Source of the DNA: a virus
Taxonomy: Duplodnaviria > Heunggongvirae > Uroviricota > Caudoviricetes
Reading direction: 5' to 3' (one strand)
Virus record (IMG/VR): IMGVR_UViG_2609460344_000011
Span: 1-8,704 of that record
DNA length: 8,704 bases
Shown: positions 1 through 8,704 of the stretch, in pieces
Numbering within the stretch: position 1 is the first letter of the stretch
How the letters are laid out: each line of letters starts with the position of its first letter
The notes under the pieces: model-generated
What the model saw: only the letters and a program-made list of their open reading frames with translations
Database searches by the model: none
What the model was told of the DNA's origin: nothing
Position numbers and translations under genes: made by a program

Positions 1-86
1 TTTCCACCCCTGTACGTCTCACCACCTATATGGTCGTGGAAAGCCTTGGTGGTGAGTTCATTGAATTCAACATAGGGGCTGTCACC

Positions 87-632
87 ATGACTACTCTCCC
101 AACCCAATCTCACCCTGAAATCACGATTATCAATGGTCGCGTTGTCACCACATCTCTTGCAGTAGCTAATTACTTTACTAAACGGCATGAGCGGGTTTTA
201 GATAGAATTAGAAACCTCGAATGTTCCGCTGAATTTACTGAACACAATTTTGTGTTAAGTGAATACACCGACGCATCAGGCCGCAAACTCCCTTGTTACC
301 AAATCACCCGCGACGGTTTTGCGTTTCTTGCCATGGGCTTCACTGGTAAACGTGCTGCCCGGTTCAAAGAGGCATACATAAATGCCTTTAACCAGATGGA
401 AAAACTGCTTTCAAAGCCATCCACGCTGAGCGATGCCGCAGATAACGCCAGCGTGCTTTACTCCCACCTGTCGGTAATCCACAAGGTCTGGCTGCAGCAG
501 CTTTATCCCATGTTGGCAAAAGCCGAATCCCCGCTGGCTGTAAGTCTGTATGACCGCATCAACGACGCGGCGCTACTGGCCAGTCTCATAAATTTGTCGC
601 TGAACCCTTCAGAGGTAAGGGGGCGTAAATGA
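87..632 (+). CDS. Rha-family phage regulatory protein (antirepressor-like)
   Basis: ATG at 87 preceded by GGGG (75-78). The ORF is open from 30, but the N-terminus MTTLPTQSHPEITIINGRVVTTSLAVANYFTKRHERVLDRIRN fits the Rha-domain pattern recalled from memory. Stop TGA 630-632 overlaps the next ATG. Confidence 0.65.
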   Translation: MTTLPTQSHPEITIINGRVVTTSLAVANYFTKRHERVLDRIRNLECSAEFTEHNFVLSEYTDASGRKLPCYQITRDGFAFLAMGFTGKRAARFKEAYINAFNQMEKLLSKPSTLSDAADNASVLYSHLSVIHKVWLQQLYPMLAKAESPLAVSLYDRINDAALLASLINLSLNPSEVRGRK

Positions 633-853
633 TCCGGAATATTTTCAAACGGTTTACCAATCATACTTTCTGTTGTCCTCGTCCGGGTCAGTGGTACACC
701 ACGCCTGCAGGGCATGTTCTACGTGTTAGCCTGGTTGACCGTGAATGTCAGAAGGTGATTTGTGAACCGCTGGGCCGTAATTACCGCGTCAGTATGCCGC
801 TTATAGCCTTTTGCTCCGGAAAAAACATGAAGCATCTCGGAGGTGCTGCATGA
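629..853 (+). CDS. hypothetical small protein (74 aa), translationally coupled between Rha and the O-like gene
   Basis: ATG 629 overlaps the upstream stop (ATGA). Purine-rich SD-like GAGGTAAGGGGG at 611-622. Its stop TGA 851-853 overlaps the next start at 850. No recognisable domain. Confidence 0.45.
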   Translation: MIRNIFKRFTNHTFCCPRPGQWYTTPAGHVLRVSLVDRECQKVICEPLGRNYRVSMPLIAFCSGKNMKHLGGAA

Positions 854-1668
854 GTATGGAGTTGATGGTTAAAGCGATGAAAATTCGAGTGGGAAATCCA
901 TTGCGAAAACTGGTTCTGATTAAGCTGGCTGATAATGCCAGCGATCAGGGTGAGTGCTGGCCCAGCTATCAGCATATCGCTGATCAGTGCGAGATTAGCA
1001 AACGTTCTGTGATGAATCATATTGCGGCCCTCTGTGAGTCCGGGCTGGTAAAAAAAGTCACCCGGAAAGGTGAAAAAGGTAACTCAAGTAATATCTATCT
1101 CCTTCATCTGGATGGTGCAGGAGATTCACTAGGGGGTAGTGCAAATAATTCACTATCTGGTGCAGCAAATTCACCAGGTAGTGCAGGAGTTGCACCAGGG
1201 GGTAGTGCAGGAGATTCACCCAGAACCAGTCACTCTTTTGAACCAGTCAAAGAACCAGTCAATGAACCAATAGCTGTTGGTGAATCTGCTGATGAGTCTG
1301 TGCGAGTTCGTTCAAACCGACCGGAATACTCTCCGGAGTTTGAGCAGGCATGGCTGGCATACCCCAAACGTGCTGGTGGCAATTCAAAATCTGCAGCCTT
1401 CAAAGCCTGGAAAGCCCGTTTGAATGAGGGGGTAAACCCCGAAACCATGCTGGAAGGTGTGAAACGCTACGCGGGCTGGGTATCTGCGATGGGTAACAGC
1501 GGCACACAATTTGTGAAACAGGCTGTCACGTTCTTTGGTCCGGATCGTCATTTCGAAGAATCCTGGGAAGTTCCTGCGGTATCTGCAGCCAGACGCGAGG
1601 ACCCGTACTTCAAAGCCAGTTACGACAACGTGGACTACAGCCAGATCCCGGAAGGATTCAGGGGGTGA
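850..1668 (+). CDS. lambdoid replication initiator O-like protein (N-terminal HTH domain, Gly/Ser/Ala linker, C-terminal domain)
   Basis: ATG 850 with GGAGG at 838-842. N-terminal segment LRKLVLIKLADNASDQGECWPSYQHIADQCEISKRSVMNHIAALCESGLV matches the helix-turn-helix typical of phage O-type replication protein N-termini. A low-complexity linker follows, encoded by iteron-like DNA repeats. Confidence 0.65.
   Translation: MSMELMVKAMKIRVGNPLRKLVLIKLADNASDQGECWPSYQHIADQCEISKRSVMNHIAALCESGLVKKVTRKGEKGNSSNIYLLHLDGAGDSLGGSANNSLSGAANSPGSAGVAPGGSAGDSPRTSHSFEPVKEPVNEPIAVGESADESVRVRSNRPEYSPEFEQAWLAYPKRAGGNSKSAAFKAWKARLNEGVNPETMLEGVKRYAGWVSAMGNSGTQFVKQAVTFFGPDRHFEESWEVPAVSAARREDPYFKASYDNVDYSQIPEGFRG
1111..1221. 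repeat. iteron-like direct repeats inside the O-like gene (candidate replication origin)
   Basis: GTGCAGGAGATTCAC occurs at 1115-1129 and 1205-1219. GGGGGTAGTGCA occurs at 1132-1143 and 1198-1209. ATTCAC recurs at 1124, 1148, 1169 and 1214, giving a roughly 21-24 bp period. Further degenerate copies (GGTAGTGCAGGAG at 1177) lie between. Confidence 0.4.
1240..1271. repeat. short tandem repeat GAACCAGTCAA x2 plus a partial copy, encoding EPVKEPVNEP
   Basis: GAACCAGTCAA at 1240-1250 and 1252-1262, then GAACCAA at 1265-1271, immediately 3' of the iteron-like block. Confidence 0.4.
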
Positions 1669-1670
1669 TC

Positions 1671-2159
1671 ATGAGTCTTTTGAATGAAGTTCAGAAATTC
1701 ATTGAAGCCCATCCGGGGTGTACTTCCGGAGACATTGCGGATGCTTTTGCAGGTTACTCACGGCAGCGCGTTCTGCAGTCAGCAAGCAAGTTACGTCAGA
1801 GTGGGCGTGTGGCTCACCGTTGTGAAGGAGATACACGCAGACATTTCCCGCGCCTGACTGAGAGAGCACAGGAGCCGGAACCACAACCAGTTCGTGAAAC
1901 CAGACCTGTGCGCAATTTCTGTGTCGGCACTAACGACCCGCAGGTGATTTTGTGCCTGACTCGCCAGGCGGAAGAACTGGAGTCCAGGGGCTTATTCCGT
2001 CGAGCTGCAACGGTGTGGATGGAGGCATTCCGTGAAAGCCACTCCCAGCCAGAACGAAACAATTTTCTGGCGCATCGTGAGCGGTGCTTACGGAAAAGCA
2101 GCAAGCGCGCTGCATCGGGTGAAGAGTGGTATCTGTCAGGGAATTACGTGGGGGCTTAA
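1671..2159 (+). CDS. PerC-like transcriptional regulator domain protein with N-terminal winged-helix-like region
   Basis: ATG 1671 with AGGGGG at 1659-1664; the upstream stop TGA 1666-1668 lies just before it. C-terminal segment ESRGLFRRAATVWMEAFRESHSQPERNNFLAHRERCLRK fits the recalled PerC/Pch signature (GLxRRAAxxW ... RRxxC). The N-terminal half looks like a small wHTH. Confidence 0.5.
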   Translation: MSLLNEVQKFIEAHPGCTSGDIADAFAGYSRQRVLQSASKLRQSGRVAHRCEGDTRRHFPRLTERAQEPEPQPVRETRPVRNFCVGTNDPQVILCLTRQAEELESRGLFRRAATVWMEAFRESHSQPERNNFLAHRERCLRKSSKRAASGEEWYLSGNYVGA

Positions 2160-2812
2160 TGAGTAATAAATATTGCCAGGCGCTGGTGGAGCTGCGGAAC
2201 AAACCAGCCCATGAACTGAAGGAAGTGGGCGATCAGTGGCGCACGCCGGACAACATTTTCTGGGGAATTAACACCCTGTTTGGCCCGTTTGTTCTGGATC
2301 TGTTCACTGATGGTGATAACGCCAAATGTGCCGCTTATTACACTGCGGAAGACAACGCGCTGGCGCATGACTGGTCTGAACGTCTTGCGGAGCTTAAAGG
2401 TGCTGCCTTTGGTAATCCCCCGTACAGCCGCGCCAGTCAGCATGAGGGGCAATACATCACCGGCATGCGTTACATCATGAAACATGCCAGTGCCATGCGT
2501 GATAAAGGCGGGCGCTATGTTTTCCTGATCAAAGCTGCCACCAGCGAAGTGTGGTGGCCGGAAGATGCAGATCATATTGCTTTTATTCGCGGGCGTATTG
2601 GTTTTGAACTGCCTGCCTGGTTTATCCCGAAAGACGAAAAGCAGGTGCCAACAGGTGCTTTCTTCGCTGGTGCTATTGCTGTTTTCGACAAGACCTGGAA
2701 GGGACCGGCAATCAGCTACATAGGGCGCGATGAACTTGAGGCATGTGGTGAGGCGTTTCTGGCGCAGGTTCGCCAGCAGGCGGAAAAACTGGTCAGGGAG
2801 ATGGCGGCATGA
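2159..2812 (+). CDS. phage Dam-family N6-adenine DNA methyltransferase
   Basis: ATG 2159 overlaps the upstream stop TAA 2157-2159, with a G-run at 2150-2154. Contains the GNPPY catalytic-type motif (N/DPPY class) and overall resemblance to phage N-6-adenine methyltransferases. Confidence 0.75.
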   Translation: MSNKYCQALVELRNKPAHELKEVGDQWRTPDNIFWGINTLFGPFVLDLFTDGDNAKCAAYYTAEDNALAHDWSERLAELKGAAFGNPPYSRASQHEGQYITGMRYIMKHASAMRDKGGRYVFLIKAATSEVWWPEDADHIAFIRGRIGFELPAWFIPKDEKQVPTGAFFAGAIAVFDKTWKGPAISYIGRDELEACGEAFLAQVRQQAEKLVREMAA

Positions 2813-3135
2813 CGACATTAACTCAATGCCAGCAGCAGGTGCTGGATATGCTGATTTCTTATCAGAAAGAACGTGGCTTCCCGCCAACCAATCAGGAGGT
2901 GGCAACCATGCTGGGATACCGTTCGGTGAATGCAGCGGTGGAGCATCTTCGCGCACTGGAGAAAAAAGGTGTCATCACGATAAAGCGTGGCGTGGCCCGG
3001 GGTATCACTCTTCATACCGCGGTGAAGGACGACGACAGCGAGGCGGTCGGGATTATCCGCGCCCTGCTTGCCGGTGAGGCAAACGCCAGGCTGCGTGCAG
3101 CCCACTGGTTACATGAGAGGGGCCTGAAAGTATGA
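2809..3135 (+). CDS. LexA N-terminal DNA-binding domain homologue lacking the S24 peptidase domain
   Basis: ATG 2809 overlaps the upstream stop (ATGA). Residues 1-68 align without gaps to the E. coli LexA N-terminal domain as recalled: LTxxQQxVxDxI ... GxPPTxxExAxxLGxRSxNAAxEHLxALxxKGVIxI ... RGIxL. The protein ends at 108 aa with no catalytic Ser/Lys domain. Confidence 0.75.
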   Translation: MTTLTQCQQQVLDMLISYQKERGFPPTNQEVATMLGYRSVNAAVEHLRALEKKGVITIKRGVARGITLHTAVKDDDSEAVGIIRALLAGEANARLRAAHWLHERGLKV

Positions 3136-3527
3136 AGCTAATACTGCCTTTTCCGCCCAGCGTGAACACGTACTGGCGACACCCCAACAAAGGGGCGTTT
3201 GCTGGTAAGAGCCTGATAAGCGCGGCGGGGCGAAAATTCCAGAGCGCGGCGTGTGCAGCAATAGTTGAGCAGTTACGTCGTCTGCCGAAACCAACGTCGG
3301 CACCTGCTTCAGTGGAGATCGTGTTGTTTCCTCCGGATAACCGGATCCGCGATCTGGACAACTATAACAAGGCGCTGTTTGACGCCCTGACCCACGCGGG
3401 TGTGTGGGAAGACGACAGTCAGGTGAAAAGAATGCTGGTGGAGTGGGGACCGGTTATCCCGGAGGGGAAGGTCGAGATCACTATCAGTAAGTACGAAAAA
3501 GCGAGTTGCAAATTAGCAACTCGGTAA
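3132..3527 (+). CDS. rusA: RusA-family Holliday junction resolvase (crossover junction endodeoxyribonuclease)
   Basis: ATG 3132 overlaps the upstream stop (ATGA), with GAGAGGGG upstream. N-terminal LILPFPPSVNTYWR and the acidic core DLDNYNKALFDALTHAGVWEDDSQV match RusA family signatures. Confidence 0.85.
   Translation: MKLILPFPPSVNTYWRHPNKGAFAGKSLISAAGRKFQSAACAAIVEQLRRLPKPTSAPASVEIVLFPPDNRIRDLDNYNKALFDALTHAGVWEDDSQVKRMLVEWGPVIPEGKVEITISKYEKASCKLATR
3502..3523. repeat. perfect 8-bp inverted repeat CGAGTTGC-N6-GCAACTCG at the 3' end of rusA
   Basis: CGAGTTGC (3502-3509) and GCAACTCG (3516-3523) are exact reverse complements. No U-tract follows, so it is more likely an operator or RNA stem than an intrinsic terminator. 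Confidence 0.35.
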
Positions 3528-3572
3528 CGGAATTGAGCAACACCCTAAATTTGGGTATTACCTCGTTAAAGA

Positions 3573-3592
3573 TACTGTATTTATGAACAGTG
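3573..3592. promoter_or_regulatory. LexA (SOS) box, consensus CTGT-N8-ACAG
   Basis: TACTGTATTTATGAACAGTG: CTGT at 3575-3578, an AT-rich 8-nt spacer, ACAG at 3587-3590. Candidate sigma70 elements TTGATA (3598-3603)-N17-TAAGTT (3621-3626) lie immediately downstream, before the KilA-N gene start at 3690. Confidence 0.7.
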
Positions 3593-3689
3593 TATCCTTG
3601 ATAACTATTAAAAATCGCAGTAAGTTCATCCTGCATCAACGAAAAGGGAGTGCAGTCCCGCTCGTGGATAAAAATTTGTGGAGAAACCA

Positions 3690-4505
3690 ATGAATCAGTT
3701 GCTTGTAATTGATGGCGTTTCTGTGCGTCAGTACTTCGAATCTAACTACTGTCTTAACGACCTTCAGAAAGCTGCTCTTCTTGCCGCTGGTGAGAATCGC
3801 TCCTCCCGTTCGCTGGAAGTTCACGAGTTTATGCGTCGTCCTGAAACGAAGGCTCTTGTGGAATTATTGGAAGAAGAAACTACGGGAGATTCCCGTAGTA
3901 TTCCTGTCATCACCATTCAGGGGCGCAATGGTGGGACGTATGTCTGTAAAGAGCTGGTCTATGCATATGCAATGTGGATCAGCCCGGCATTCAGCTTAAA
4001 AGTGATACGTACTTTTGATGCGCTTCATAATTCATCACCAGAAGAAACCACATCCGACAAAATTAAATCCGGGGTCATTCTGCTTGAATCAGCAGCAAAG
4101 ACTCTAAATCTGTCAAACTCCTCGAAACTTGGTGCATACCAGAAATTATCAAAGGTAGCTGGTCTTCCTGAACTTATGCCGATCTATGCCATTGATGCAC
4201 CTGCTGATGCGCCAGATGGTTCAAGCCGCCCTACGCTGTCGCTGAGTGCACTGCTGAAGCAGTATGGTATCCGCCTGACGGCTAATCAGGCATATCACCA
4301 GATGGCGAAGCTGGGGATCGTTGAACAACGCGAACGATACAGCCGTACCGCGATTAACAACATCAAAAAATTCTGGTCGCTGACCGCGAAAGGCTGCATG
4401 TTCGGCAAGAACATCACCAGTCCTGCAAATCCGCGCGAGACGCAGCCGCATTTCTTCGAATCCCGATTTCCTGAGCTGTTAAAGCTGCTCGATACCGTTC
4501 ATTGA
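3690..4505 (+). CDS. KilA-N domain protein, probable SOS-controlled antirepressor-like protein
   Basis: ATG 3690 with GGAG at 3680-3683. The N-terminal 110 aa (YCLNDLQKAALL ... IQGRNGGTYVCKELVYAYAMWISPAFSLKVIRTFDAL) fit the KilA-N domain pattern. Preceded by the LexA box. Confidence 0.7.
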   Translation: MNQLLVIDGVSVRQYFESNYCLNDLQKAALLAAGENRSSRSLEVHEFMRRPETKALVELLEEETTGDSRSIPVITIQGRNGGTYVCKELVYAYAMWISPAFSLKVIRTFDALHNSSPEETTSDKIKSGVILLESAAKTLNLSNSSKLGAYQKLSKVAGLPELMPIYAIDAPADAPDGSSRPTLSLSALLKQYGIRLTANQAYHQMAKLGIVEQRERYSRTAINNIKKFWSLTAKGCMFGKNITSPANPRETQPHFFESRFPELLKLLDTVH

Positions 4506-4506
4506 G

Positions 4507-5502
4507 GTGACTGTGAGAGCACTACTGACCCCTGAAATTGCCCCGCGTATGGGGATCGTATTGTTCAGGCCAGGTTCAGAGCTGATGCCCCTGTTTATGC
4601 AGGGGCGTGTCCTGCTGGAGCCTGAGCCGGAGCGTTATTCATCTTTCGCCAGTGGTGCCGTTCCGGCGGCATCACAACCGCTGGCGGATGATCCTGCCGT
4701 TCGGGCCGTGTTCCGCCATGAGGCAGTGATCCGTCGTGCTGGTGGCGTGGAATGTCTTGAAAGCTGGTTACTTCGTGAAAAAGGCTGCCAGTGGCCTCAT
4801 TCCGGATGGCACAGCGAGAACATGACCACAATGCGACACGCTCCGGGCGCAATCCGTCTGTGCTGGCACTGCGATAACCAGCTGCGCGATCAGTTCACGG
4901 AACGGCTGGAATCAATGGCAACGGATAACTGTGCCCGCTGGGTGTTGTCTGTTGTGCGTCGGGATCTCGGTTTTGATGACAGTCACGTTGTGACAATGCC
5001 GGAACTGTGCTGGTGGCTGATTCGTAATGACCTGGCGGATGCCTTACCGGAAAGTGCAGCCCGTAAGGCACTGAGATTACCGAAGCCTGTTGTGCCGTCT
5101 GTCACCCGGGAAAGTGACCTTGTGCCTTCGGTTCCTGCCACCAGCATCATCCAGGATAAAGCGAAAAAGGTGCTGGCGCTGAAAGTGGATCCGGAGTCGC
5201 CGGAGTCTTTTATGTTACGCCCCAAACGTCGCCGCTGGGTTAATGAAAAGTACACGCGCTGGGTTAAGACGCAGCCGTGTGCATGTTGTGGAAAGCCTGC
5301 TGATGATCCCCACCACCTGATAGGCCACGGTCAGGGGGGAATGGGTACAAAAGCGCATGACCTCTTCGTGCTGCCTTTGTGCAGAAAGCATCACGACGAG
5401 CTGCATGCGGATACCGTGGCATTTGAAGAGAAGTATGGCTCCCAGCTGGAGCTGATATTTCGTTTTATCGATCGTGCGCTGGCAATAGGCGTGCTGGCCT
5501 GA
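4507..5502 (+). CDS. DUF968-family protein with C-terminal HNH-like Cys/His motif
   Basis: C-terminal CACCGKPADDPHHLIGHGQGGMGTKAHDLFVLPLCRKHHDELH resembles the DUF968 family found next to Q in E. coli prophages. The start is uncertain: GTG 4507, GTG 4513 or ATG 4549, none with a strong SD. Confidence 0.6.
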   Translation: MTVRALLTPEIAPRMGIVLFRPGSELMPLFMQGRVLLEPEPERYSSFASGAVPAASQPLADDPAVRAVFRHEAVIRRAGGVECLESWLLREKGCQWPHSGWHSENMTTMRHAPGAIRLCWHCDNQLRDQFTERLESMATDNCARWVLSVVRRDLGFDDSHVVTMPELCWWLIRNDLADALPESAARKALRLPKPVVPSVTRESDLVPSVPATSIIQDKAKKVLALKVDPESPESFMLRPKRRRWVNEKYTRWVKTQPCACCGKPADDPHHLIGHGQGGMGTKAHDLFVLPLCRKHHDELHADTVAFEEKYGSQLELIFRFIDRALAIGVLA

Positions 5503-5519
5503 TTTTGTGGAGAAAGTTG

Positions 5520-5891
5520 ATGCGTGATATTCAAATGGTTCTTGAACGTTGGGGGGCATGGGTGGCAAATAATCACGAGGATGTGGAATGGTCATCTGTT
5601 GCTGCAGGTTTTAAGGGATTAATTCCTTCGAAAGTAAAATCCCGCCCGCAATGTAGCGATGACGATGGCCTGATCATTAGCTCTGCGATGACAGTTCTTA
5701 AGAAAAAGGAACCGTATCAATACGAATTACTGGAAATGTATTATGTGTATGGGGTTACATTACGGGTGTTGGGGGTAAAACTGGGGATATCACTTAATCA
5801 GGTTGTTATCAGACTGCAGAAAGCTGAAGGGTTTATTGACGGTTGTCTGGCAATGTTGGGGGTATCTTTAGAAATTGATTGTTACATATAG
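5520..5891 (+). CDS. Q-like late-gene antiterminator (small, about 123 aa, quuD-type)
   Basis: ATG 5520 with GGAGA at 5509-5513. The size, the position after rusA/DUF968 and before the tRNA cluster, and the N-terminal MRDIQMVLERWGAW match my recollection of small Q antiterminators of E. coli prophages. Family assignment is from memory, not a search. Confidence 0.55.
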   Translation: MRDIQMVLERWGAWVANNHEDVEWSSVAAGFKGLIPSKVKSRPQCSDDDGLIISSAMTVLKKKEPYQYELLEMYYVYGVTLRVLGVKLGISLNQVVIRLQKAEGFIDGCLAMLGVSLEIDCYI

Positions 5892-5930
5892 TAATAAATT
5901 CAATCAAAGTAAATAATCATATTTTATTAT

Positions 5931-5963
5931 AACCTCCTGATGATACCTGTTCATTGGGAGGTT
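5931..5963 (+). promoter_or_regulatory. inverted repeat AACCTCC-N19-GGAGGTT that can sequester the Shine-Dalgarno of the downstream gene
   Basis: AACCTCC (5931-5937) is the exact reverse complement of GGAGGTT (5957-5963). The right arm contains the SD (GGGAGG 5956-5961) of the ATG at 5967. Candidate -10 hexamers TATTAT/TATAAC at 5925-5933. Confidence 0.35.
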
Positions 5964-5966
5964 ATT

Positions 5967-6584
5967 ATGGATAAAAATGTAGAGCATGTATTAGTTGATG
6001 CAATTGAAAATAAGCAATCTTTAACAGTCGTTTACTTAGGAGGGAGCCAGCCCGGAACATTAAGGAATATTTCTCCGATTAGTATAAATGGGGATAAATT
6101 GCGGGCAAGATGCCATAGTTCTGGAGCAGTAAAGGTTTTCAATCTTGGGAAAATACAGTTACCCAGTGACTCCTGCGCGGTATCTATGCACTATGGAGAT
6201 TTAGAAGTTAAAGCTTATGAGACGATGCAGAGCGTAAATGACAACTTTCATGCCCTTTATCCTGAAGGACGATGGGGTGTTGATTTTAATGAGCATCGCT
6301 TTGCTTTATTTGATTTTTTTAAAAACGGGAAACGAAAAAAAACGGCATTTATGGCAATTGAGTTCAGGGAAAGAGATGAAGAGAAAATAATAACAGGTGT
6401 AACAATTGATATTGGTATATCTGGAACAGTGATTTCTGAGAAGTCCCGAATCCCAAAAAGACGACCATGGGTAGTGGTTGGTCCCGAACACGGAGAATAC
6501 AGTACTTATTCAACTTTGGACAAGGCTGCTACAGCGTTTTTTGAGAGGCTTTCGTTGATAGCATCCGGCCTGGAAGATAATTGA
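5967..6584 (+). CDS. hypothetical protein (205 aa), AT-rich accessory gene of unknown function
   Basis: ATG 5967 with a perfect GGGAGG SD at 5956-5961; an alternative ATG at 5940 has no SD. No family recognised. Markedly AT-rich relative to the upstream genes (by eye). Hand count: 11 of 12 Arg codons are AGA/AGG/CGA/CGG and 6 of 14 Ile codons are ATA. Confidence 0.6.
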   Translation: MDKNVEHVLVDAIENKQSLTVVYLGGSQPGTLRNISPISINGDKLRARCHSSGAVKVFNLGKIQLPSDSCAVSMHYGDLEVKAYETMQSVNDNFHALYPEGRWGVDFNEHRFALFDFFKNGKRKKTAFMAIEFRERDEEKIITGVTIDIGISGTVISEKSRIPKRRPWVVVGPEHGEYSTYSTLDKAATAFFERLSLIASGLEDN

Positions 6585-6716
6585 TTTTATGTTTGGTATT
6601 CAGAGTTCGCCGTGCTTAAGAAAGTCAAGATTCTAAAAATACTGAATGAGCTACTTGTGTTATAACAAAAATGCTATTAGTGTGTTAAGAGTGGTTACTT
6701 CGCCACACAACTTAAC

Positions 6717-6738
6717 CCCGCCACTGAGCGGGTTTTTT
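6717..6738 (+). terminator. intrinsic terminator
   Basis: Stem CCCGC (6717-6721) / GCGGG (6728-6732), loop CACTGA, followed by T6 (6733-6738). Confidence 0.6.
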
Positions 6739-6788
6739 GTACCTGTAAACTTGGTGCAGTACAGTAAACACGCTGGTGGTCGTGAATA

Positions 6789-6815
6789 CTGGCTTTTTAT
6801 CTTGCTGGCTTTTTA
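6789..6815. repeat. 11-bp perfect direct repeat CTGGCTTTTTA x2 (candidate regulator-binding site)
   Basis: CTGGCTTTTTA at 6789-6799 and 6805-6815, a 16-bp centre-to-centre spacing, about 50-75 bp upstream of the ATG at 6863. Confidence 0.35.
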
Positions 6816-6862
6816 GACAAGAGTTATTGGTATGTCACGTTAACCGGAAAGGGTAAAAAGAC

Positions 6863-7060
6863 ATGCTGAAACAGCAGGATATGACAGAAACCGCCAGAGT
6901 TGTGTTTGATGAATTAAGCGTTACCGAACCGGCGACAGTCGGGGAGATTGCGCAGAATACTTACCTTTCACGCGAACGCTGCCAGTTAATACTGACCCAG
7001 CTTGTTATGGCGGGTCTGGCAGACTATCAGTGCGGTTGTTACAGACGCCTTCAGTCCTGA
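6863..7060 (+). CDS. hypothetical small protein (65 aa), possible winged-helix (PapI/FaeA-like) DNA-binding protein
   Basis: ATG 6863 with a weak purine-rich stretch GGAAAGGG upstream. A helix-turn-helix-like segment ATVGEIAQNTYLSRERCQLILTQLVMAGL. Bracketed by intrinsic terminators. Assignment is tentative. Confidence 0.4.
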   Translation: MLKQQDMTETARVVFDELSVTEPATVGEIAQNTYLSRERCQLILTQLVMAGLADYQCGCYRRLQS

Positions 7061-7073
7061 AGGCTTTTTATTT
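7047..7073 (+). terminator. intrinsic terminator overlapping the stop codon of the 65-aa ORF
   Basis: Stem GCCTTCA (7047-7053) / TGAAGGC (7058-7064), loop GTCC, followed by TTTTTATTT (7065-7073). Confidence 0.55.
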
Positions 7074-7194
7074 GTGGTGAATGGGCGGCTGGTGGGGGGG
7101 CGACACCTGTCAGTCCTTTGCTTATGTGTTGATGATAATTTACCTTTTGGGGCTATAATTGAGCTAACCAATTGCTAATGAAAGTAAAATTATA

Positions 7195-7908
7195 ATGGCT
7201 GTTGTCTGTTCAGTTATCATGGTTTGCTCCCCAATTAATATTTTTCTTGAAAAGGATACGTTGTCACTTAAGCCAGGCTCAGTTGTTCTGGCCACCAAAT
7301 GCATCAGGGAGCTTTTCCTTATGCATTATGGCAAAGTTAAAATTGTCGATATAAGCGAATCCGTCGTAAGTCAATATCTGGAAAGTCAGCATAAGCTGAC
7401 GAGGACTCGTCTGACTGACATTCCGCTTTACCTGTTGCTGGAACCCAACAATCCTGCGTTGGCTGCGGCTTTAATTACCAGCCAGGGATTTTCCGGAGAG
7501 GCCACGGATATGTTTCTTATGATGGCCTGCCTGTCTCTGTTTGAAACAGATGAACGGATGTCATTGTTTTTAAGTGGATGTTTATCCAGCATAAGTGCCA
7601 AAGTCAGGGCGATAATTCAGACAGATATATCAGCAAGCTGGACGCTTGGTGCGATTGCTCTACAGTTGCATATGAGTGAGAGTTTGTTAAAGACAAAACT
7701 GAAAAATGAAGGGGGCATGTTCAGTCGCTTGTTGCTGGAAGAGCGGATGCGTGTTGCTGTAAATATGTTATGTTCCCGGCATGGATATGGACAGGCTATA
7801 GCAGAAAAATGCGGTTATTCAAGCAGGTCCTACTTTATTTCTGTATTTCACCGCTATTATGGCTTCCCGCCAGACAGATATGTATCCAGGCAAGGGCTTG
7901 ATTATTGA
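7195..7908 (+). CDS. AraC-family transcriptional regulator (AppY/GadX/YdeO/Rns-like)
   Basis: C-terminal AraC-type HTH (WTLGAIALQLHMSESLLKTKLKNEGGMFSRLLLEERMRVAVNMLCSRHGYGQAIAEKCGYSSRSYFISVFHRYYGFPP). N-terminus MAVVCSVIMVC resembles the AppY-like subgroup as recalled. AT-rich, with 5 AGG, 1 AGA and 5 ATA codons by hand count. No clear SD; an alternative start is ATG 7219. Confidence 0.7.
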   Translation: MAVVCSVIMVCSPINIFLEKDTLSLKPGSVVLATKCIRELFLMHYGKVKIVDISESVVSQYLESQHKLTRTRLTDIPLYLLLEPNNPALAAALITSQGFSGEATDMFLMMACLSLFETDERMSLFLSGCLSSISAKVRAIIQTDISASWTLGAIALQLHMSESLLKTKLKNEGGMFSRLLLEERMRVAVNMLCSRHGYGQAIAEKCGYSSRSYFISVFHRYYGFPPDRYVSRQGLDY

Positions 7909-7936
7909 TTTTCATCTGATTATTATTTTTTGGCTC

Positions 7937-8012
7937 GGCCCTTTAGCTCAGTGGTGAGAGCGAGCGACTCATAATCGCCAGGTCGCTGGTTCAAATCCAG
8001 CAAGGGCCACCA
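7937..8012 (+). tRNA. tRNA with anticodon CAU, most likely tRNA-Ile2 (lysidine, reads AUA); generic annotation would be tRNA-Met
   Basis: Hand-folded cloverleaf: acceptor GGCCCTT/AAGGGCC, D-arm GCTC/GAGC, anticodon loop CTCATAA, T-arm GCTGG/CCAGC with TTCAAAT loop, encoded CCA. Close to E. coli ileX as recalled. Confidence 0.8.
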
Positions 8013-8019
8013 TCACATA

Positions 8020-8096
8020 CCGCCATTAGCTCATCAGGAAAGAGCGCCAGCCTTCGAAGCTGGCTGCGCGGGGTTCAAGTCCCCGATGGCGGTCCA
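8020..8096 (+). tRNA. tRNA-Arg, anticodon UCG (reads CGA/CGG)
   Basis: Acceptor CCGCCAT/ATGGCGG, D-arm GCTC/GAGC, anticodon stem CCAGC/GCTGG with loop CTTCGAA, T-arm CGGGG/CCCCG with TTCAAGT loop, encoded CCA. The C1-G72 first pair is unusual but the fold is complete. Confidence 0.75.
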
Positions 8097-8109
8097 TTAT
8101 CTGCATCAT

Positions 8110-8186
8110 GCGTTGTTAGCTCAGCCGGACAGAGCAATTGCCTTCTAAGCAATCGGTCACTGGTTCGAATCCAGTACAACGCGCCA
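8110..8186 (+). tRNA. tRNA-Arg, anticodon UCU (reads AGA/AGG), argU-like
   Basis: Acceptor GCGTTGT/ACAACGC, D-arm GCTC/GAGC, anticodon stem ATTGC/GCAAT with loop CTTCTAA, T-arm ACTGG/CCAGT with TTCGAAT loop, encoded CCA. Confidence 0.8.
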
Positions 8187-8200
8187 CACTTATTTTCCCT

Positions 8201-8227
8201 GGCTCGCTTTTGCGGGCCTTTTTTTTT
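8201..8227 (+). terminator. intrinsic terminator downstream of the tRNA cluster
   Basis: Stem GGCTCGC (8201-8207) / GCGGGCC (8212-8218) with one G-U pair, loop TTTT, followed by T9 (8219-8227). Confidence 0.65.
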
Positions 8228-8439
8228 AAATGTCTCACAATTCAGGCGGTTGACTGTTGTCTGGTTTGCGGGGAGTTTGTTAAAAGAAACTGGCATGGTG
8301 AATCCCCCTGTGCGGAGGGGCAATCAGCAACTGGTGTTTTGTCACCGACCCTTATCCTTTCTGTGCGGGTTCAGGTGCTGATACTGAACTCACCGGGAGG
8401 CACCCGGCACCATGCAATGGCACATAGCGCCACTCTCCA

Positions 8440-8463
8440 GCCCCTCTCCGGAGGGGCTTTCTT
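8440..8463 (+). terminator. GC-rich hairpin with weak T-rich tail (possible attenuator or terminator)
   Basis: Stem GCCCCTC (8440-8446) / GAGGGGC (8451-8457), loop TCCG, followed by TTTCTT. Confidence 0.35.
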
Positions 8464-8469
8464 ATGGAC

Positions 8470-8497
8470 AAAAAAATCCCGCGCTGGGAGACGCGGG
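8470..8497 (-). terminator. candidate minus-strand intrinsic terminator
   Basis: Stem CCCGCG (8478-8483) / CGCGGG (8492-8497) with an 8-nt loop, preceded on the + strand by A7 (8470-8476). On the minus strand this reads hairpin then U7. Confidence 0.35.
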
Positions 8498-8691
8498 CGG
8501 CAAGGAATAAACAACAAAACGTGAAGTAATATTTCAGTTGGCGAATAATATCCGACAGTAATCACTCTGCGCAATAGCGCGGCCTTTTTCGTATTGCGGG
8601 CTGTTGTCTATCTTCTGCCATTATCCTGTAACTTCCGGACTTCAGCCCGCTCCTCATTTTACTCACAATATTATCCAGGCCGGGAGGATTC

Positions 8692-8704
8692 ATGGCATTT
8701 AAAC
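8692..8704 (+). CDS. 5' end of an unidentified gene running out of the window (begins MAFK)
   Basis: ATG 8692 preceded by GGGAGG at 8681-8686 with 5-nt spacing. Only 4 codons are visible. Confidence 0.3.

Follow-up and report, generated by a model that had tools for sequence, protein, structure and literature searches.

The prophage-encoded secretion regulators (Psr) PsrA and PsrB of Escherichia coli O157:H7 are reported to bind directly to the promoters of hdeA (positions -132 to -45) and gadE (reviewed in PMC10877973 and PMC8565820; see also PMC10057817). [quoted passage not shown] The psrB gene (z2104) is located on OI-57 (EDL933 coordinates 1849324-1929825; PMC8565820), psrA (z1789) was put on OI-50 by the reviews (PMC10877973, PMC8565820), and ECs1087 of strain Sakai is psrA according to a 2026 statement by the Tree laboratory (PMC13502914). 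Our literature search on z2104, ECs1087, and z1789 returned these two reviews and nothing further. Other members of the same circle are PatE (z0321, on OI-8), which is also a prophage-borne AraC/XylS activator of gadE and hdeA, and the K-12 proteins GadW, YdeO, and AppY, which act on gadE and the acid fitness island (PMC10057817), respond to other input signals, and are chromosomally encoded (AppY in the tail-end region of DLP12).

We analyzed an 8,704-nt stretch of DNA from a member of the Caudoviricetes (IMG/VR record IMGVR_UViG_2609460344_000011, positions 1 to 8,704), hereafter called the window, which carries an intact gene of the Psr type. The window is part of a lambdoid prophage that encodes Rha, an HTH/DnaD-like replication protein, a YfdN-type PerC, a Dam methylase, a LexA-like protein, RusA, KilA-N, DUF968, and antiterminator Q; in the closest genome, lysis and head genes follow downstream. 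The features considered here are as follows.

1665 to 2159, plus strand: PerC-like gene of the 164-aa YfdN type (yfdN in the nearest genome); Pfam PerC match of 34.5 bits (cut-off 22.6), with the domain covering only residues 100-151
5505 to 5891, plus strand: antiterminator Q (PF06530, 160.8 bits), marking the late-region slot of the cassette
5940 to 6584, plus strand: 214-aa WYL-like ORF directly after Q; WYL match subthreshold (16.3 bits), full-length match to PHROG 8498
6863 to 7060, plus strand: 65-aa ORF; PHROG 331 (126.7 bits), Pfam TrmB-like winged-helix match below the cut-off (17.8 bits)
7047 to 7064, plus strand: terminator-like hairpin with a T-run just past the 65-aa ORF, kept in the O157 copies
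7132 to 7159, plus strand: sigma-70 promoter-like site from a consensus scan (ATGATA-16-TATAAT, 10/12), about 36 nt 5' of the ATG; putative own promoter of the psrB-type gene
7195 to 7908, plus strand: psrB-type gene, an uninterrupted ORF from ATG to TGA for a 237-aa AraC/XylS-family regulator
7937 to 8012, plus strand: tRNA with a CAU anticodon, called Met by ARAGORN and tRNA-Ile (ileZ), an AUA reader, in RefSeq and Sakai
8020 to 8096, plus strand: tRNA-Arg (UCG), argN type
8110 to 8186, plus strand: tRNA-Arg (UCU), argO type, reading AGA/AGG
8201 to 8218, plus strand: terminator-like hairpin with T9 at the end of the psr-tRNA block

The psrB-type protein consists of an N-terminal beta/alpha domain (approximately residues 1-125) and a C-terminal double helix-turn-helix (HTH) DNA-binding domain (approximately residues 130-232). 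Pfam recognizes HTH_AraC (50.3 bits; cut-off 26.6) and HTH_18 (39.8 bits; cut-off 33.6) at residues 155-230, and PHROG 1450 matches the full length of the protein at 330 bits. The AraC/XylS family is defined by a C-terminal region of about 100 aa with two HTH motifs, and both the Pfam matches and the superposition of a structural model show this arrangement in the psrB-type protein. The AlphaFold model (mean pLDDT of 71) is confident for the C-terminal domain, whose residues 130-232 fit the DNA-binding domain of GadX (3mkl) in a superposition with a TM-score of 0.85, an rmsd of 2.0 A, and 43% identity. The N-terminal domain is modeled as five strands followed by helices, at pLDDT values (37-75) too uncertain for a ligand pocket to be assessed. 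Over the full length, the best matches among solved structures were Rns, CsvR, and ToxT, which likewise begin with a small beta-rich domain and continue with a double HTH, but these proteins are only 17-20% identical to the psrB-type protein (whole-chain TM-score of about 0.38), whose N-terminal domain is shorter and, at a pLDDT of 50-75, permits no statement on a fatty-acid pocket.

An N-terminal motif, M-x-V/T-x-C-S-V-I/V, is common to every Psr variant, PatE, AppY, YdeO, and GadW, and residue 1 of the psrB-type protein pairs with position 1 of the NCBIfam YdeO profile. The sequence-only reading had left the choice between ATG 7195 and ATG 7219 to start-site mapping. The conserved N terminus settles it: we assign the start to ATG 7195 because a start at 7219 would remove the motif, and the latter was rejected. 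The annotation of Sakai ECs_1087 (588 nt) begins 42 codons too late and is too short. Three descriptive points of that reading agree with our measurements. The gene is AT-rich, although the difference is moderate (43.8% GC versus 49.1% for the window); it is rich in rare codons, with 5 AGG, 1 AGA, and 5 ATA (4.6 per 100 codons, compared with 0.4-3.1 in most neighboring genes), such that AGR accounts for 6 of 13 Arg codons and ATA for 5 of 15 Ile codons; and the leader directly 5' of ATG 7195 (...GCTAATGAAAGTAAAATTATA-ATG) contains no obvious Shine-Dalgarno sequence.

At the nucleotide level, the gene is 100% identical to that of E. coli strain cM8a (WP_000301785.1, annotated as a "helix-turn-helix domain-containing protein"), and a prophage of this strain matches the entire window at 99.7% identity. 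Among O157:H7 genomes, the copy at 1.907 Mb in ATCC 43894 is 99.2% identical in nucleotide and 98.7% identical in amino acid sequence, and ECs_1087 of Sakai prophage Sp4 is 94.3% and 90.7% identical, respectively; both protein alignments cover the full length of 237 aa. Only three substitutions (A103V, H195Y, and I201V) separate the window protein from O157 PsrB, all of them outside the stretches SESLLKTKLKNEG and SRSYFISVFHRYYG, which we take to be the pair of recognition helices. PsrA differs at 22 residues, more of them in the N-terminal domain. These comparisons identify the window ORF as a real and intact allele of PsrB, a regulator that has already been characterized.

The 714-bp gene was found in 726 of 5,426 complete E. 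coli genomes (approximately 13%), with an identity of at least 99% in 595 of them and of 90-95% in 130; O157:H7 strains typically carry two copies, and the carriers include isolates from humans, chickens, pigs, and cattle. A single 90%-identity cluster of 2,285 members holds the window protein, the OI-57 copy, and ECs1087, each of these three sequences occurring on about 1,000 contigs; the names attached to Psr proteins in this clustering are generic only, with no specific gene name. A search of 5.8 billion proteins returned matches from E. coli and Shigella only, graded at 98, 91, 77, 64, 59, and 39% identity, a series that fits the six further Psr homologs in the literature.

The correspondence between the O157 gene names and sequences was established through coordinates and the statements of the reviews for z2104 and z1789. 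The genomes of ATCC 43894 and EDL933 are colinear, their coordinates agreeing to within approximately 3 kb at the potC prophage (OI-50), and the copy at 1.907 Mb therefore lies inside OI-57 (prophage CP-933O) and represents PsrB. The two O157 copies compared here agree with the 90% identity described for PsrA and PsrB. No psr copy was found in the potC prophage of ATCC 43894 (1626000-1675000), which carries nleL, espN, and espK and is the counterpart of OI-50, and Sakai psrA (ECs1087) is in Sp4 near pchA, against the placement on OI-50 in the reviews. The explanation must lie in a difference from current assemblies, in either the original EDL933 assembly or the bookkeeping of the O islands. 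The name given to each of the two O157 copies, which draws on the Tree-laboratory statement and the OI-57 coordinates, is thus somewhat uncertain; membership of the window ORF in the Psr group does not depend on it because the identity is 90.7% or more with either copy.

Psr regulators are described as exclusively prophage borne; accordingly, all six genomic contexts of psr that we examined are lambdoid prophages, and in all six a CAU tRNA annotated as tRNA-Ile begins 26-28 nt past the psr stop codon. In the window, this distance is 28 nt, and the tRNA cluster (7937-8186) comprises three genes. The CAU tRNA is labeled variously as Met or Ile across RefSeq genomes; ileZ presumably is lysidine modified and reads AUA. 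The 65-aa ORF precedes psr in four of the six contexts (including the closest match and Sakai Sp4), is frameshifted in another, and is absent from the remaining one; its product may act as a small DNA-binding partner, or the ORF may just belong to the cassette. The segment from the 65-aa ORF through the tRNAs (approximately 6683-8224) is 94-96% identical in nucleotide sequence in O157 prophages whose antiterminators belong to other families. The O157 PsrB copy shares the order of 65-aa ORF, psr, tRNA-Ile, and tRNA-Arg downstream of an antiterminator, but it has a DUF1133-type protein at the position of the PF06530 Q of the window and two tRNAs instead of three, and the host of the window prophage is not O157. 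The PsrA context in Sp4 shares ileZ-argN-argO and a downstream SASA esterase with the window and differs in having pchA 4 kb downstream.

The sequence-only reading had described the location of the gene as a cargo slot between Q and the tRNAs. The gene does lie downstream of Q and directly before the tRNAs, but the WYL-like and 65-aa ORFs intervene after Q. Within the window, GC content is lowest (39.5%) and rare codons are most frequent (6.1 per 100) in the WYL-like ORF, which is trailed by two terminator-like hairpins (6717-6732 and 6772-6793). That reading had also counted two virulence-regulator-type genes in the element. Although the Pfam PerC match is real, the PerC-like protein is of the YfdN type (164 aa) and not of the 104-aa Pch/PerC virulence type, and the claim was overstated. 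Psr regulators are known from prophages that also bear effector loci and regulators of the Pch family. A 104-aa Pch/PerC gene occurs downstream of psr in both O157 copies; within the 26 kb that surround the closest match, neither a 104-aa Pch gene nor effector genes were found, and the only PerC there is the 164-aa YfdN type. The PerC-like gene of the window is situated in the replication/nin region and overlaps its neighbors by a few bases. PADLOC found no defense-system match for the AraC-type protein and its two upstream neighbors, and it gave a weak match of the KilA-N protein (3678-4505, plus strand) to the candidate defense family PDC-S22 (36.3 bits; E value of 7.6e-10; residues 67-122 only). 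Downstream of the tRNA cluster, the window contains the prophage small RNA (sRNA) STnc100 (8264-8469, plus strand; full-length match to RF02076, 143 bits, gathering score of 47), which precedes the start of a SASA-family esterase (nanS-p-like) at approximately 8693 and has a terminator-like hairpin (8439-8458) at its end. STnc100 has been tied to PasD sRNAs and esterase genes (2026 preprint).

The bases immediately upstream of the gene (7100-7194) are identical in O157 psrB (a shared leader of 95 nt) and differ by one base in Sakai psrA, though the coding sequences of the latter pair differ by 6%. Between positions 5800 and 8704, we detected 12 terminator-like sites, compared with 2.7 +/- 1.7 expected from shuffled sequences. 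This enrichment fits a Q-antitermination-dependent late leader packed with morons; a weak candidate for the late promoter pR' is present at 5940-5968. The hairpin at 7047-7064 would shield the psr gene from transcription that arrives from upstream, except by Q-modified RNA polymerase. Lysogens probably transcribe psr from its own promoter (approximately 7132-7159); after induction, Q-modified RNA polymerase would pass the terminator-rich region and also transcribe psr.

For family placement, we constructed a neighbor-joining tree to which AppY, EnvY, YdeO, GadW, and GadX of K-12 and ECs_0287 of Sakai Sp1, which we take to be PatE, were added. The window ORF grouped with O157 PsrB inside the Psr clade, with PatE as the sister lineage, followed by GadW/AppY/YdeO and then by EnvY/GadX. 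Full-length identities to the window protein were 37% for PatE, 35% for GadW, 31% for YdeO, and 29% (28.6%) for AppY. NCBIfam scores were 108.5 bits for YdeO, 87 bits for GadX, and 71 bits for HilD, all below the equivalog cut-offs; YdeO (NF007407) and GadX (NF007432) would require 348 and 500 bits, respectively. These scores classify the psrB-type protein as a relative and not an ortholog of YdeO and GadX, and orthology with AppY of DLP12 does not hold either, given the identity of 28.6% and the separate branch of AppY in the tree. GadW, YdeO, and AppY resemble the window protein in their two-domain layout and N-terminal motif at 29-35% full-length identity, and PatE, apart from its 37% identity, differs in length (247 aa) and in its other prophage position without adjacent tRNAs. 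Identity, NCBIfam scores, and tree together bear out the earlier description of the gene as a prophage-borne AraC regulator of the AppY/GadX/Psr type, and the phylogenetic placement that it had called for is in the Psr clade, near PatE and GadW/AppY/YdeO.

We therefore consider it very likely that the window ORF is an allele of PsrB, i.e., a two-domain AraC/XylS activator that lambdoid prophages carry in their late region as a moron cassette and that would regulate the acid resistance of the host. The identity, architecture, intactness, selection, leader, and slot of the gene were established here, and its host targets are inferred from the O157 literature. By analogy with O157, the PsrB allele would bind to AT-rich sites within two promoters of the acid fitness island of the host, those of gadE and hdeA, and raise the levels of GadE, YhiF, and HdeAB, leading to increased glutamate-dependent acid resistance. 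In hosts carrying the LEE, GadE and YhiF would then repress type III secretion; in an LEE-negative host, the acid resistance arm alone would apply.

Other readings of the gene were weighed against this proposal. An ordinary ligand-sensing catabolic AraC regulator of the arabinose or rhamnose type, present in the prophage by chance, would share the C-terminal AraC-type HTH domain with the window protein and nothing else. The protein scored only 22.1 bits with AraC and 17-25 bits with RhaS/RhaR, far from the equivalog level of these sugar-operon regulators (cut-offs of 208 for AraC and 288-525 for RhaS/RhaR) and from its own YdeO score; Pfam detected no AraC_binding/cupin domain; the MxVxCSVI N terminus of the GadW/YdeO/AppY/PatE group is present; and a catabolic operon is absent beside the gene. 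A catabolic role is effectively refuted, and we give it next to no chance; the sugar-operon regulators, which the sequence-only reading had named as the closest homologs that would contradict it, are far more distant than YdeO (22 versus 108.5 bits). A regulator acting mainly on genes of the phage itself (for example, the neighboring tRNAs, the sRNA, or late/lysis genes) rather than on the host would be in keeping with the slot between Q and the lysis cassette, with the tight linkage to tRNA-Ile in every context examined, and with the lack of an assigned function for PHROG 1450. In lambdoid phages, however, the slot between Q and the lysis genes typically holds lysogenic-conversion cargo such as stx; moreover, the near-identical O157 proteins are reported to have gadE and hdeA as direct host targets, and the nearest chromosomal relatives, GadW, YdeO, AppY, and PatE, all act on the acid fitness island, making a phage-internal role very unlikely.

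The gene could also be an intact hitchhiking moron without measurable consequences for host physiology, left effectively unexpressed by H-NS silencing or a weak translation start. The psrB-type gene may indeed be poorly expressed or silenced by H-NS, since it is AT-rich and lacks a clear Shine-Dalgarno sequence; its enriched rare codons, the small change in type III secretion upon psrB deletion in O157, and the purely generic database names point in the same direction. Against this, each of six psr alleles taken from different prophages has an unbroken reading frame of 237 codons, and their pairwise dN/dS ratios range from 0.15 to 0.43. When split by domain, the DNA-binding half was more constrained (0.13-0.31) than the N-terminal half (0.33-0.52) in all four pairs. 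These ratios show purifying selection on the psrB-type gene. The full conservation of leader and promoter-like site despite a 6% difference in coding sequence between the prophages, the presence of the gene in 13% of complete E. coli genomes, and the gain in acid resistance and mouse survival upon PsrB induction (PMC10877973, PMC8565820) likewise argue against a silent passenger, which we regard as unlikely.

An extension of the PsrB proposal is that psr, the ileZ-type tRNA, and the flanking terminators form a self-contained two-mode unit, with low expression from its own promoter in the lysogen and a Q-dependent burst on induction that transiently reprograms host acid resistance, the tRNAs aiding translation of the ATA/AGR-rich message. 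The enrichment of ATA and AGR codons in psr does match the adjacent tRNAs, which read AUA and AGA/AGG. However, such coupling is argued against because PatE and AppY have more rare codons (6.5 and 9.6 per 100, respectively) and neither has such tRNAs nearby. We rejected the rare codons as a specific adaptation to the adjacent tRNAs; the codon bias of psr is best explained by a foreign, AT-rich origin. We hold the complete two-mode scheme to be a tentative and rather doubtful one. If it were true, phage induction, by SOS in the gut for instance, would transiently reprogram the acid resistance of the host population, including LEE-negative commensal and extraintestinal strains.

For a PsrB allele, the practical gain is in annotation: the gene can be named psrB-like, its start placed at the first ATG, and its cassette structure described, in place of the label "helix-turn-helix domain-containing protein" that it still bears in public records. 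A PsrB-type regulator that has been studied only in O157:H7 moves as a compact cassette between lambdoid prophages with different Q genes and is carried by approximately 13% of complete E. coli genomes, a reminder that the rewiring of acid resistance by prophages is not confined to EHEC.
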